Assembly (NCBI GenBank): GCA_951406725.2
Contig: OX597825.1
Span: 60,264,001 to 60,328,000 of the forward strand
Direction: 5' to 3'
DNA length: 64,000 nucleotides
Source of the DNA: Octopus vulgaris
Lineage: Eukaryota
The notes beneath the pieces were generated by a model. The model was not told the origin of the DNA, made no database searches, and saw only the letters and a list, made by a program, of their open reading frames with translations. Shown here in pieces: positions 3,700-53,478 of the stretch. A program made the translations under genes and the position numbers. Position 1 is the stretch's first letter, and the number at the start of each line of letters is the position of its first letter.

Positions 3700-4250
3700 A
3701 TGAATTAGTGATAAAACCACTATTATGCAACGCAATATGAGTTAAGGATATTCGTGAGTTTATTATGTTTTTTATAAAGCCATATTATACCTTCAAATAT
3801 AAATACATATTTCTCTCTATTTTTACCTTTCAAATAAATATTTAACATAATAAATGGGTTGTATGACATAATCCTAATGTTTTTAGTATCTAATTTAGAT
3901 AATGGAGTTTTTTTATGAGAAAATGTTTTTTTTTATTTGTTTCTTTAAAAATATTGTTTAACTCTATTTGCTTAATTATTTAACTATTATCATTAGCCTG
4001 AAGAATGACTATAGTTTTATTTCGAATTTATTTCAATTAAATTTAACCTTAATTGTAATTCGAATTTAATTATAGCCATGAAACGTACGTAGTGTTTTTA
4101 CTTATTATATTTATCATTCTTTTTATACTTTTTGGAAACAAAAATAAAAAAATTATATATATATATATATATATGTTATTTATTATTTATGTATTGGTTT
4201 ATGTCTATCACTGTTTGAGTTGCATAATAGTGGTTTTATCTCTAATTCAT
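3700..4250 (+). mobile_element. Non-autonomous PLE-like (pLTR) element with inverted ends between (TA)n tracts
   Basis: 36-bp inverted repeat at 3700-3735 / 4215-4250 enclosing an HHR motif. Confidence 0.6.
3996..4093 (+). ncRNA. Type I hammerhead ribozyme motif with long stem II and decayed stem I
   Basis: CTGAAGA at 3998-4004; stem II atgactata/tatagccat with an inner ttcgaatt/aattcgaa extension; GAAA at 4080-4083; palindromic stem III ACGTACGT; GUA cleavage triplet. Confidence 0.65.
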
Positions 4251-4993
4251 ACTATATATATATATAGCAATATGTTTGTACGTGTATATATGTGTGTGCG
4301 TGCATTTAAGTATGTGCTTATGTACATACGAGGTGTATTTGAGTATACTTAATTATCAGAATGCTATACTCTTTATGACAATCATACATTTCCTTTTAAT
4401 TTCTTTCACATACTTAATGACAGCTAAAAGACTAACAAAAAAATTGAAAAGACAGGCATTCATTACTGCTCTATCTGTAAAAGTTAGGTGATTTAGAAAT
4501 TCCCTACTCCCTGCATGATCATATGTACACAAATTTCGGATGGAATTAGAAGCCTCTAGCCGGAATGCATCAAAGGTCTGAAAGGTTAAGAAAAAGAGAT
4601 ATTCAGCTGAATACACGTCATTGATTGGTTTAAATTACCGAAATAGGACTACTTTAACGTGAAATAACTTCGTAAATATAAGTTTTTCTCAAACATGTTA
4701 AGAGTAAAACATGTTTTGTATGACACATTCTACCAGTGTCCGAAGTTTTAAAGTGTTTAATTAGAAAAATAATTTTTTAAATCTGTAACTGAAAAGGTAA
4801 AGATCCATGCAAAGCGTTGCTTTGATCGCGACTTCTCTGGGAGGGGCGACTTTAAATTTGTCCCTCTCCCTTCGTAACATTTAAAATATTTGGCAAGCTC
4901 TCTTCCATATCCTATATATCTTGTCTTCACTCCGGTAGCTTGTGAAAAGTTTTTTTCCATTTATAACTTCTCTGCAACTGGCATACACTTTAA

Positions 4994-5574
4994 TTCATTT
5001 ACTTCGAAATTTGCTATAAAATTGTGGTTTTTGGCCCTGTTGGATGCTATTTATAGCATGTAAAATTACCTTTTAAAGGGTAATTTTCTATTTTGAAATA
5101 CGAGTATGTTGTCTATTGACTTTTTATACATGCTAGGCCACTGGCGGTGATATTTATAACGAGTATTCGCCACCCTATATATATATGTACCTTATGAATA
5201 TGTTCTTAGCATTCTCGAAGTTTCAGCTCGGTATTGTATCTATTGCTGACTGTAAATACGCCTGCGCGCGATATTTGGAAAATTATAGCATATAATGATG
5301 GGACACGTGTTATCTTGTCTCTGAATTATAAGTTAGTTGTTTAGGCCGGTTACTGACGAGGATTCGCCTGGTAGATAATATGGTCTTGCAAAATTATCTA
5401 TCAAAAATCTGAAACCGTTATATAACAAGGTAAAGGTTTTTATTTTTCATTTACTTCGAAATTTGCTATAAAATTATGGTTTTTGGCCGTGTTGGCTGCT
5501 ATTTCTAGCATGTAAAATTACCTGTTAAAAGTAATTTTCTAGTTTGAAATACGAATATGTTGTCTATTGACTTT
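4994..5574 (+). repeat. ~130-bp direct repeat with ~452-bp period (tandem pLTR/retrozyme-like)
   Basis: 4994-5123 matches 5446-5574. An HHR motif lies between the copies. The sequence is related to 14238-14423. Confidence 0.8.
5349..5426 (+). ncRNA. Type I hammerhead ribozyme motif, stem III decayed
   Basis: gtta-CTGACGA (5353-5359); stem II ggatt/aatct extended by tggtagataat/attatctatca; GAAAC at 5411; stem I gtta/taac. Confidence 0.6.
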
Positions 5575-6354
5575 AATTCCATCGACAGAACAGTTTTACT
5601 GGTACTTGGTCCGTAATTTGTGGTACATGATCCATGATTCGAACATTTGGTTGGTAATTTTTCCATTTCTTTTGTAAAAAATTTTTCCCTTTTTTCTTTC
5701 TTATTTTTTGTAGGTTTCCCCACTAGGAGCAAAACAACGCAATACAAGTCTACCTACGGCAGATAACAAATTTATGTTTAACAAAAGAAATTAACAAACA
5801 CAACAGTTAGCAGTAGCACCATCCTTCAAAAACAAGAACTCAGCAAAGTGAGGAGAACGAATTAATTCTTTATTGCCCACAAGGGGCTAAACATAGAGAG
5901 GACGGTACAAGGACAGACAGAGACATAAAATATAAAAGCGATGGATGAAATGAAATGTACAAAAGGAAGATGAACGCTATAGCTAGAGTCCCACAATAAG
6001 CAATCACGTTATTACTGTTCATTTTCTGTTCATTAACTACTAAATTATAGATGCTTTCGATCTAGTTTGGATTCTTTGCCACCAAATTTGAATTCTTTGC
6101 TATCAAATTTGAATTTTTTAATTAGTGCTCAAACCTTGAAAAAAAAAGAGAGTTAAACTACATCAGCCGTAAGGGAATATCTTAACTATCTCGTCCAGTA
6201 GAGCCCATCAATTGATATCTGAAAAGTTCGATCAAATAACTCATGAACCCTGCGATAGCTTCTACCGAAAGACGCTCCCTTACGTCGACAGTCTGAACAA
6301 GGGGAGATAATAAACGAATGATTATTTTTCTATTATCTCCCCATGTATATATAT

Positions 6355-6584
6355 ATGTGTGTGTGTGTGTATGTGTGTGTATGTTTGTGTGTATGTCTTT
6401 GTCTCCCCAACATCGCTTGACAACCTTTGCAGGTGTGTTTACGTCCCCGCAACTTAGCGGTTCGTCAAAAGAACCGATAGAATAAGTACTAGACTTACAA
6501 AGAATAAGTCCTGGGGTCGATCTGCTCGACTAAAAGCGGCGCTCGAGCATGGCCACAGTCAAATGACTGAAACAAGTAAAAGAG
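6355..6584 (+). mobile_element. 3' half of SINE family B
   Basis: catcgcttgacaacc...cttagcggttcg...gaataagtactag...atgactgaaacaagtaaaagag. Confidence 0.85.
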
Positions 6585-50830: not shown

Positions 50831-50932
50831 TATATATATATATATATATATATATATATATATATATATATATATATATATATACATATACAGAGAGAGA
50901 GAGAGAGAGAGAGAGAGAGAGAGAGAGAGAGA
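50831..50932. repeat. (TA)n and (GA)n microsatellite
   Basis: Directly visible. Confidence 0.95.
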
Positions 50933-51862
50933 AAGAATGGGAAATAAAAAGCTATGTGTGCATTTATGGATATCTGCACGTTTATTGAAACTTGTGTTGT
51001 AAACACGCTTATATTTAACCTACCCCCATACGTACACATAGTAATTCGTATGTGTGTGTGAACCTGTGTTTGAAAATGTGTATATCAGTGGAGGACAATA
51101 AATATCACTGATGTCTGCACATGTTGAGTGCTTTGCTCTTTTGCAACTTTCACACATGAAATCAAATATCTACATGTGCATATATAAATGTGCATAATTA
51201 CACGCACACATATATACATACGTAGATATCTACATTTGTGTAAATGTTTGTACATACAGTGTACGAAATAGGCTGTATTTATTTAAGTTCGTGCAAATTA
51301 ATTTCGATGCCTAGTCCTGTCAGTATGGTAGTTCATCCTATCCACATTCTTTTCCGCCTTTCTAACAAATAACATGTTTAATTCTATGACAATTTCAGCA
51401 ACTCCACACTTCAACCACCCCGGTGCAAATCACTTAATCTCTTTTGAATTTATCCTGCGCTCATCTTTGATCAACAGTGCATTCAAAACCATTTTATACC
51501 ACACAAATCCTCCTTTATTCCTTACGCATACACAATTATATATGTGCGTTTGAGAGTGTGAACGAGTTTGTATAGTTGTGATTTCACAAAACTAATGCTA
51601 GTTTAATCAATTATCTCCCTGTGTTTTGGTGCGTTTACTTTGTATTTTTTAATGTATTAGGTGGAAATAAGTACAACTAGAAACTATTGCTAGCATTACA
51701 ACCAGTTACTCTCATAGTGATAGAATGAGAATCAGCACGGAATACCTATTTTATTTTGAAGATTTCATACATAAAATGATAGTAGGCGAAATCGTAACTA
51801 TTTCGTTGAGGAAATACTGGAATCAAATCTGTTTCCATCAAAGGCATTCAAAGTGTTGAAAC

Positions 51863-52790
51863 TACAGGATGTTCCAAAGCAAAGGCAACACACCTTTTTC
51901 AATTTTGCCAATGCAAATGTTATATTGCAGGCCGAGCGTTGTAATGCAATGGAAAAGAAATAACAATTATGATACTACAACATTTAATTGATGTGACGAC
52001 TCGAATCCTGGCCTCATATACTTCACACGCAGCACACAGCTGTTCTTGGAGAATCGTAGCACATTTCTGGCGCAATTTCGCCTTCAAAGTGGCGGGAAAT
52101 GTATAAGAAGGGCTCTAAACTCACTCTCGTTTCCAAAGTGAATAAGACAGAAAATCCAACGGGTTGAGATCGGGGATTCTTGGGAGCCCATAAATCCTTG
52201 CCAGTGAACGACGGAACGTTCTTCCGAATCCAGTGTTTTGTTTGTTCGGAGCTGTGGAGGCTTCAAGGAGCTCCTTGAAAGTGCTCATTCACCGACGGAA
52301 GCAGTTCAGCTTCCGAAATTTCACTAATGTATCGCTGGATGTTAATTTTAACACCCAAGGGTACAAAAACGAGAGGAGACCTCCAGTGGCTGTCACAGCC
52401 GTCCAAAGCATAATTGACTGTAGATTTTGACGTCGATTTACGAGTCTAACTTTGACAGATCCAGATAAACTCCAAAGTCACTCATTCTGGTAGCTTAGTG
52501 TCTGTTCGATGTCAAATTTCTTTTCATCAGTGAACAACAGGTTGGGTAGCGTGCCTTCAACAATCTGACGAAAAGATTTCTCTCCACTTTCATGGACTTA
52601 TAAACTTGCGTGAGCTCATGACGAGGGAAGATCTTGTAGGGTTGGGTCTTGAGATCCTCCATCAGTACTCTATACATCGTTGTACGTCTTATTTATGCCG
52701 TGGCAGCCAGTTTTCTGATGGAATGACGAGGATTTCGCTGTATCCTTGCTTTGATAAGGGAATTTTAAAAAAAAGTTTGATTCAGGAATT
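51863..52790 (-). pseudogene. Decayed Tc1/mariner (DD37D-like) DNA transposon
   Basis: Minus strand LLFTDEKKFDIEQ, SIMLWTAVT, GVKINIQRYI and SPDLNPLDF. A TA-caggatgttcc TIR-like end lies at ~51863. Confidence 0.8.
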
Positions 52791-53436
52791 GTAGGTTCAC
52801 TACTTCATTTTACTAACTGTAAATTTACTTCGGTGCCTACATTTCGCTCCACGTTCATCATATGTGTTTTATAATTGATCTCTAGACTGTCGTAGTTTCA
52901 TAAATCCTCTTATGCATCCAAAGGAGGAAGAGGTGAGGTTGATCGATCGTAGGAGATCATCATCGATATGTCTGTTTTATGATATAACACTGCCTAGGTG
53001 CATGGTTTATATATAATTGTGTATGTCTATATGCACACACACGCACGCACGCAGACACACACACACACACACACACACACACACACACACACACACACAC
53101 ACACACACATATATATATATATATATATATATATATATATGCATATTTAAATATTCAGAGTTATATAGATGAGATATAACAATTATAACAATTATATAAC
53201 AACTATGTTAACAATAAAACATGTGGTATGAAGACAATTCTCTGATGAACATGCATTTAGTTTTGCTGCTCATGCGCCCTCTCCCTTCCCCACTATTTAA
53301 TTTACTATCTATTAGTTCTTCGATATATAATAACAGCCTATCAGCCTTAAGTATTTTAAATGTCGGTACATGGGGTATAATATTTTTTACCCAGGTAATT
53401 TACTTTATAATACATCATTTTATAGGCAACATAAAC

Positions 53437-53478
53437 AATCTCTGATGATGCTTTAATAACAGGTAAAACTAGTCAATT
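53437..53478 (+). ncRNA. Degenerate minimal hammerhead motif
   Basis: aatct-CTGATGA-tgct..aggt-(A)AAACTAGTC with G12>A; palindromic stem III ACTAGT; GUC triplet. Lies in a segment between TA-rich tracts. Confidence 0.45.

Follow-up and report, generated by a model that had tools for sequence, protein, structure and literature searches.

A stretch of 64,000 nucleotides from the genome of Octopus vulgaris (contig OX597825.1, positions 60,264,001 to 60,328,000; hereafter the window) carries dispersed motifs resembling type I hammerhead ribozymes, and it raises the question of whether these motifs belong to a ribozyme-driven system of their own or to Penelope-like elements (PLEs), retroelements known to bear such ribozymes. 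An initial annotation had placed hammerhead cores at 11 sites and had interpreted them as independent non-coding mini-elements that are processed by their ribozymes, borrow PLE enzymes, and favor simple repeats. We searched for the families of these sites across the 2.8-Gb genome (227 contigs); sites are named by the position of their cores in the window (3998, 5353, 7079, and so on), and L-numbers designate the genome loci retrieved for comparison. Nine of the sites were found to be mostly decayed type I hammerhead motifs of high-copy repeat families. Five of the families (3998, 7079, 27338, 45973, and 27792) are the 3′ ends, or pseudo-long terminal repeats (pLTRs), of coding PLEs or direct derivatives of them, and the other four (5353, 14148, 28064, and 42739) appear to be units of 350-490 nt without open reading frames (ORFs), which form partial tandems and resemble non-LTR retrozymes. 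All nine are thus PLE ends or ORF-less units with a PLE insertion signature, and we consider it probable that their copies were written by PLE enzymes and not by a separate ribozyme-driven system. The most unusual features, which were absent from the initial annotation, are the head of the 27792 element, which derives from a tRNA, and a 28064 unit nested within that element.

The motifs were present where the annotation had put them. The window has 33% G+C and many microsatellites, and they might be chance matches in such AT-rich, repeat-rich DNA. In line with this explanation, and contrary to the expectation that motif counts would exceed the shuffled background, the bare core CTGANGA was not enriched (24 occurrences in the window versus 22.4 ± 4.8 in shuffled sequences, with 37 of 100 shuffles reaching 24). 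Descriptors of a complete hammerhead did, however, exceed the shuffles. The minimal descriptor set a priori returned one hammerhead (14148) against 0.02 per shuffle (2/100 shuffles), the same descriptor with one core mismatch allowed also found 28102 on the reverse strand, and a descriptor loosened after the families were known returned three matches (7079+, 7070-, and 14148+) against 0.05 per shuffle (0/200), an enrichment that is optimistic because this descriptor was tuned on the families. The comparison with Rfam was similarly divided: among the 150 matches listed of 261 for the whole window there was no hammerhead, only hairpin and microsatellite artefacts, whereas a search with 27250-28720 yielded Hammerhead_HH9 at 28048-28120 on the reverse strand with 35.6 bits (E 6.7e-7), below the gathering score of 52.

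Support for the hammerheads of the window rests on the repeat families. In the genome search, nine of the 11 sites belonged to repeats, with 360-3573 first-look candidates each; in their families complete motifs occurred, stems covaried, and exact cores numbered in the thousands, with none in reversed controls (at least 4191 versus 0 for 27792, and 3911 versus 0 for 7079; 45973 had 1248 exact genome matches). The chance-match explanation is thus refuted for these nine sites, and as an account of the whole set it is extremely improbable. The two other sites are without any family, and there the initial annotation found no support, its motifs at these places notwithstanding. Site 21100 (21100..21145, plus strand; core CTGAAAA) and site 53442 (53442..53485, plus strand; AAAA for GAAA, no stem I) were single copies in the search, which returned only themselves, a result that does not prove rarity; no convincing match to either was present in the ~1.97 Mb of retrieved loci.

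Within the repeat families, the core boxes and stems I, II, and III stood in type I order. A complete type I parse was obtained for 25/25 loci of 7079 (19 distinct insertions by coordinates), and for 23/30 copies of 28064, 17/25 of 45973, 16/30 of 5353, 14/30 of 27792, 11/30 of 14148, 4/25 of 42739, 2/30 of 3998, and 0/25 of 27338. The strands of stem I vary among the families yet pair inside each of them. Across the nine window families 33 of 36 positions were paired, versus 16.8 ± 3.1 with strands swapped (0/100000 as high), and across 16 families 61 of 64 versus 28.7, figures that are biased upward since the representative copies were chosen for motif presence. Of 24 parsed copies of 14148, 13 had TA at the centre of stem III and 8 had AT, a double change that keeps the palindrome, as expected if it is maintained for dimers. 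The stem covariation that the initial annotation had proposed to look for was thus present, and so, at most of the sites, were its PLE-linked type I hammerheads from several different sequence families. The palindromic stem III sequences ACGTACGT, ACAGCTGT, and ACATATGT that it had pointed out were features of their families, whereas ACTAGT, at 53442, was left unsupported.

The copies in the window are in a different state: 7079, intact on both strands, is the sole intact site, 14148 and 28064 are near-complete with a damaged stem III palindrome, and the remaining hammerheads are broken or half motifs. Sites 3998 and 27338 share an atypical build (a 2-bp stem I, and two pairs and an A.C mismatch before a long stem II); the two families (hammerheads at 3996-4094 and 27440-27338) are unrelated despite this common 2-bp stem I and A.C mismatch. 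A T.T opposition closes stem II in both 3998 and 7079.

The manner of insertion also pointed to PLEs. The families displayed inverted 5′-truncated arms, partial tandems, a one-sided optional tail, and varied 5′ extents, a copy structure that constitutes a PLE signature according to PMC8557442 and PMC11167929. Inverted arms were counted in 20/30 loci of 27792, 24/25 of 7079, 17/25 of 45973, and 12/30 of 28064, some loci being two arms of one insertion, and the inverted or tandem arrangement of many sites was thereby confirmed. A (TA)5 run lay at the 3′ end in 25/25 loci of 7079, 22/25 of 45973, 23/30 of 5353, 22/30 of 14148, 14/30 of 3998, and 7/30 of 28064, the background being 6-17% depending on window size; it was not a mark of 27338 (3/25), 42739 (1/25), or 27792 (0/30). 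The proposed preference for simple repeats thus held for the (TA)n flanks of six families and failed for the other three, the (AAT)n next to 27792 being internal to that element and not a target.

No PLE coding remnant was found in the 64-kb window. Elsewhere in the genome, a reading frame for reverse transcriptase (RT) with a GIY-YIG endonuclease (EN) at the C terminus stood upstream of the hammerhead end in 3998, 7079, 27338 (remnants), 45973, and 27792. The notion of independent non-coding mini-elements is not tenable for these families, since all five end, or derive directly from, coding PLEs. Site 3998 is a 5′-truncated 3′ end of a coding Hydra-type PLE (3631..4266, plus strand) with an inverted tail at 3631-3735, and its atypical hammerhead (3996-4094, plus strand) combines the 2-bp stem I with the A.C mismatch in stem II and a CGTACG stem III. 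The parent is represented by a pLTR-ORF-pLTR copy (L451), relatives of which retain unbroken ORFs of 838-841 amino acids (aa) with Hydra motifs. An old Hydra-like PLE with coding capacity left its 3′ end, now decayed, at site 27338 (27237..27737, minus strand). Its hammerhead (27440-27338, minus strand) has the core CTGGTGA at 27437-27431, ~80 bases upstream of its own GAAA, a long stem II, the 2-bp stem I, and CAGCTG; endonuclease remnants lie upstream in two loci (L462 and L470).

In the 7079 insertion (6938..7140, both strands), which is palindromic, a young Hydra-type PLE with coding capacity is represented by its 5′-truncated 3′ end, with a tail on the left arm alone. Both type I hammerheads of the insertion (cores 7079+ and 7070-) are intact and have a stem III of 4 bp, the junction lies at AAGCTT in stem I, and a long copy (L560) has RT and EN upstream. 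Inversion junctions of this family gather at the stem I palindrome AAGCTT (window 7072-7077), leaving two facing intact hammerheads, and 18/39 inverted pairs join within 10 bases of the core (first 100 matches listed); the long copies seen have TAGCTT in place of AAGCTT. A fixed 5′ end for 7079, hinted at by 25 top-ranked loci, was refuted by arms of up to 10 kb and by the coding copy. Site 45973 is an inverted pair of 3′ half-hammerheads (GAAA-CATATG-TC; 45750..46043), again with the tail on the left arm, and most of the 1248 exact matches of its family are inverted pairs within ~300 bases. The site shows 76-79% identity to the ends of L507-L510, and long copies of its family (L562 and L563) are coding; the window-type 45973 is mostly a short derivative of a coding Hydra-type PLE.

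The Hydra-type character of these parents was in good agreement with published features: inspection of one locus (L495) by eye revealed DKT, KWK for RWK, a CxCX5C linker, and no CCHH, and (TA)n targets were common to the families except 27338. A profile of other PLE RT-EN sequences aligned with the Hydra-type ORFs over 610 columns (probability 96.2, E 2.4e-9). Several observations weigh against the assignment. Pfam alone misses these ORFs, recognizing 2/12 members, pairwise BLAST matches were weak (E 0.27 and 0.046), and the Hydra and Penelope/Poseidon clades were assigned by motifs alone. A sequence search of the PDB with one Hydra-type ORF gave 0 matches. The labels Dong/R4, Neptune-type, and Poseidon-type used in this text were likewise given by known or paper-described motifs.

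The fifth family, 27792, has an element of about 220-360 bases composed of a head, (AAT)n, a minimal hammerhead, and an optional 3′ tail, the latter present in 14/30 copies. In the window it extends over 28790-27735, with an inverted head and the nested 28064 unit. The inverted arm (28609..28790, plus strand) holds, at 28609-28690, a complete head of tRNA-Arg(ACG) origin in which the A and B boxes are both present, followed by (AAT)n; the 5′ part (28431..28600, minus strand) holds internal (AAT)n/(TAC)n and a sense head remnant with a B box (28600-28552); and the 3′ part (27735..27897, minus strand) comprises the end of the (AAT)n, the hammerhead, and the 3′ end without the optional tail. The minimal hammerhead GAAA-CG-TT (27835-27790, minus strand) is mutated in core and stem I in this copy. 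The family head was identical to a genuine tRNA-Arg(ACG) of the genome at 46/73 positions, gap-free from base 1, versus 18.7 for shuffled sequences and 33 for the highest of 10000 shuffles. It has retained both the A box and the B box, whereas its anticodon arm and acceptor stem have diverged. By this alignment the head is evidently tRNA-Arg(ACG)-derived; on the opposite side of the account, ARAGORN at default called 0/25 heads tRNA, and Rfam gave no tRNA match on four loci.

As the coding parent of this element we identified an RT-EN element of Penelope/Poseidon type that lacks the Neptune linker (L403, L405, L407, L408, and L394), and L403 matches RVT_1 (E 2.8e-10). The head begins ~30 bases past the end of its reading frame. 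A query with the ORF end returned 2380 candidates, and among 14 examined of 40 scored, the head followed in 13/14 and the hammerhead part in 12/14. The parent carries head, hammerhead, and tail, a 3′ end common to the short copies and their autonomous partner, and this partner is a PLE and not a long interspersed element (LINE). As a point against it, no unbroken ORF of the parent was seen, the longest open stretch being 301 aa. Matches to 27792 among 40 weaker RT loci had been considered unrelated insertions, a view that was rejected, the loci being the coding parent. In the coding copy L405, the A-box region of the head is nearer to tRNA than in most short copies, with a similar overall identity (45/73).

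Most copies of 27792 are short. Head and hammerhead occurred together in 26/30 head loci (query locus included), and 30 cores taken in order of position had the head in sense in 17, inverted alone in 6, and absent in 7. Among 66 distinct sampled heads, 61 had no coding sequence upstream; 26 of the 61 were without an inverted arm, and 35 abut one. The 5′ edge is sharp, with 67/71 head matches agreeing with the parent for fewer than 10 upstream bases and 0/71 for 10-24, and TTTT was missing from 11/13 complete copies. The short copies thus have several attributes of short interspersed elements (SINEs): a head of tRNA origin that contains the A and B boxes, 5′ ends located at that head, and no internal run of four T. 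An estimate of ~27,000 copies (13/381 loci) was set aside in favor of the exact cores as a floor, being inflated because 6 of the 13 loci had been chosen for RT. The hammerhead part of 27792 was also abundant in sequencing contigs of three organisms; these contigs skip the head and show neither ends nor strand.

Most copies begin at the head because it likely acts as a promoter. RNA polymerase III (Pol III) would start at the head and read through the (AAT)n, the hammerhead, and the tail, and the parent's own enzyme would retrotranspose this short head-to-tail RNA as a SINE. That such a start and such a retrotransposition caused the sharp 5′ edge is, in our estimation, the somewhat better-founded reading. 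The more inclusive proposal, in which a tRNA-Arg gene was captured into the terminal repeat of a coding Penelope/Poseidon-type element, whose last ~250 bases the internal Pol III promoter turned into a PLE-moved SINE copied far more often than the parent, we hold to be evenly poised between right and wrong. The edge could alternatively be a reverse-transcription stop or a fold-back hotspot at a quasi-palindrome and tRNA-like fold; the head would then be an inert remnant of a tRNA or SINE that was captured, and every copy a truncated product of the parent's long transcript. A short inverted repeat does overlap the first bases of the head, an inverted arm adjoins 35/61 of the short heads, the tRNA fold of the head is degenerate, and 7079 shows a comparable junction hotspot at a palindrome without a promoter (the 18/39 pairs above, from the first 100 matches listed). 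Given the quasi-palindrome and the promoter-less hotspot, the edge may have arisen without transcription starting there, which counts against the promoter. However, the 26 short heads with neither an inverted arm nor upstream coding sequence, the retention of A and B boxes while the anticodon arm and acceptor stem diverged, and the missing T4 terminators in the body speak against a passive relic, and we regard this alternative as possible and the less likely of the two.

The four remaining families differ from these five in that no coding parent was found in upstream walks, and the comparison with PLE pLTRs that the initial annotation had suggested thus succeeded for five families and came back empty for 5353, 14148, 28064, and 42739, which weighs against a PLE origin for all nine. 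The 5353 unit of ~490 nt is a partial tandem (4994..5574, plus strand) with a direct repeat at 4994-5123 / 5446-5574; in the window copy stem III is mostly gone, as are the cleavage triplet and stem I's 3′ strand, and CCATGG stands in 14 copies of the family. The 14148 unit of ~450 nt (13811..14356, plus strand) is akin to 5353, has an inverted arm at 13811-14004, and carries a near-intact hammerhead (14144-14212, plus strand) whose stem III palindrome has decayed to TCTTGG. The 354-nt unit of 28064 is a partial tandem (27897..28430, minus strand) that sits inside the (AAT)n stretch of the 27792 element, with a near-intact U3 hammerhead (28108-28064, minus strand; family stem III CTATAG). The old unit of 42739, ~375-435 nt in length (42588..42904, plus strand), has a decayed hammerhead and the family stem III TATGCATA. 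Unlike the complete copies of 27792, those of the four families had TTTT in 30/30, 30/30, 29/30, and 21/25 cases. The linking of 28064 to an adjacent Hydra-type ORF in L503 was rejected, the sense unit occurring in 0/12 other copies, and this too counts against a PLE parentage. Further hammerhead families were noted in the genome (L503, L506, L508, L511, and L322), some of them akin to 28064 (70%) and 14148 (70%), with compensatory stems.

These units bring up the possibility that all sites belong to a non-coding retrozyme system of their own, whose monomers or circles would arise by hammerhead cleavage and make use of PLE enzymes. Four sites are indeed ORF-less units with fixed periods (352-356 in 6/8 direct repeats of 28064, 489-493 in 4/7 rows of 5353), their sizes fit those of animal retrozymes (PMC7229834), and complete motifs are kept in many copies of 28064 (23/30) and 5353 (16/30). 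In contrast, coding sequence continues upstream of five families, and the long copies of 3998, 7079, 27338, and 27792 are coding, unlike a retrozyme family, which has no coding capacity. The tandems of the ORF-less units are partial and rare, fixed periods and partial tandems appearing in 3-8 of 25-30 loci and two full hammerheads in few (e.g. L080, L115, and L054). The upstream tandem copies of 28064 begin at varied offsets (-84 to +142) and not at the cleavage site; with most window copies broken as well, the description of these elements as ribozyme-processed was not sustained. Furthermore, 8/9 Xenopus retrozyme dimers tested remained uncleaved (bioRxiv 10.64898/2026.07.22.740005), and PLE insertion in vitro was unimpaired by hammerhead mutants (PMC11167929). 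A dedicated retrozyme system is accordingly improbable as an explanation of all sites.

Writing by PLE enzymes, the reading that we prefer, could proceed as follows. The PLE protein would nick AT-rich DNA on both strands, as may be extrapolated from PMC11167929 and PMC8557442. Two sites within the RNA, both downstream of the hammerhead, would serve as starts of reverse transcription, giving copies with or without a tail; the joining of two cDNAs head to head would create the inverted arms, and early stops of reverse transcription would leave short copies. The Hydra linker would steer insertion to (TA)n (PMC8557442). Hammerheads with a palindromic stem III may cut as dimers or with the help of protein, and cleavage may be dispensable: PLE minimal hammerheads cleave poorly in vitro (PMC4209133), and PLE insertion in vitro went ahead in spite of mutations in the hammerhead core (PMC11167929).

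Much of this is in print, and the initial annotation's idea was not a new one (PMC4209133, PMC7229834, and bioRxiv 10.64898/2026.07.22.740005): publications already cover hammerheads in PLEs, the Hydra elements, and the derivation of retrozymes from PLEs. Like published PLE hammerheads, those of the octopus have a short or absent helix III with a palindromic centre and an extra base after A9, occur mostly as solo truncated copies and opposite-strand pairs, and are widely diverse in one genome; the 2-bp helix I and irregular helix II of 3998 and 27338 are as in Penelope of D. virilis. Unlike them, the octopus families have new sequences, stem II insertions of 40-100 bases in several of the families, and, in 7079, a stem III of 4 bp. 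The Hydra-type elements share with the Hydra clade (PMC8557442) the C-terminal EN, DKT, R/KWK, the CxCX5C linker (L495), the lack of CCHH, CxxC and CxH motifs, the hammerhead, (TA)n insertion, inverted arms, and the tail, and differ from the elements described there in 3′ untranslated regions of up to 2-3 kb and in L507, which is without an obvious CxCX5C. As in animal non-LTR retrozymes (PMC7229834; bioRxiv 10.64898/2026.07.22.740005), the ORF-less units are 350-490 nt long, have a type I hammerhead, and occur as monomers and partial tandems, and those retrozymes have been proposed to be PLE derivatives; unlike them, the octopus units showed no long arrays among the loci examined, and the search for a parent of the four found none.

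The tRNA-headed element has precedents for its parts. A tRNA head combined with a hammerhead, high copy number, and proposed Pol III transcription characterize the schistosome elements Sm-alpha and Sj-alpha (PMC2770079, PMC6765202), which are tandem, have a tRNA-Gln-like head, and, in the passages compared, have no coding parent with a head, whereas the tRNA-Arg head of 27792 lies in the 3′ untranslated region of a coding PLE and its copies are dispersed, with PLE inversions and tails. Pol III promoters derived from small RNAs stand within retroelement terminal repeats in TRIMp3 (Cassandra, Helenus, and Ajax; PMC10886601). These are non-autonomous long terminal repeat elements with primer-binding sites, polypurine tracts, and target-site duplications, unlike 27792, with its PLE pLTR and a head that is part of the coding element. 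In the full-text literature as searched by titles, abstract beginnings, and passages, neither a PLE-driven SINE nor a coding PLE whose terminal repeat contains a tRNA-derived head was found; subscription journals, Repbase, and Dfam lay outside this search. The octopus tRNA-derived SINEs OK, OR1, and OR2 were reportedly described by Ohshima and Okada in 1994, from a host that is probably related. OR1 and OR2 are tRNA-Arg-like, and the 27792 family could be one of the three. OR1 or OR2 has been cited as a CORE-SINE (PMC4824008, PMC4758252), and an octopus repeat annotation lists 190 Penelope-like families, 6.83% (PMC13282606), with the word 'hammerhead' absent from its one supplement.

Other repeats were encountered on the way. 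Three further families, two of Neptune type and one of Penelope type, were rejected as parents, their ends not being common with the window families. A young Neptune-type PLE (L283-L290; e.g. L283:3079-3115 and 7561-7597) has open frames of 1100-1200 aa, tandem pLTRs 4.5 kb apart, and a minimal hammerhead with CTGTTGA (A6U) in 8/8 loci examined. A second Neptune-like family (L351-L380) has a hammerhead-like motif ~430 bases past the endonuclease end, with core A3 and U8, ATGAATA in 25/28 matches (30 loci), a 2-bp stem II, and a CCGG stem III; this core may be a natural compensatory variant, if it cuts. LINE 3′ ends, which we take to be Dong/R4-like by their motifs, sit within the (AAT)n inside the 27792 element in L131, L140, L525, and L534, like the 28064 unit of the window. 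About 20 tRNA-Arg(ACG)-like matches are clustered on another contig at spacings of ~200-1100 bases (C2:211887716-211969209). The window also contains a 184-base SINE-like segment in four tandem copies (42948-43682), a 133-base direct repeat (55339-55608), and a frame at 47838-48149 that resembles a LINE endonuclease end, without a Pfam match, which we presume from its motif to be of Dong/R4 type.

The new octopus families extend the known range of ordinary hammerhead PLE ends and ORF-less derivatives, and the tRNA-headed element is of greater consequence. The usual explanation of a SINE is a tRNA head fused to a LINE tail. In this genome the parent and its short form have head and tail in common, so that the birth of a SINE and its mobilization in trans by a PLE can be tested with the published in vitro PLE assay, and 27792 offers a natural short RNA for asking whether a PLE hammerhead is needed. 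The case suggests that a part of the annotated SINEs in such genomes may be PLE-driven. If the reading is true, this would be a SINE born inside its own driver and moved by a PLE and not by a LINE, and it would indicate a possible route to elements like Sm-alpha.

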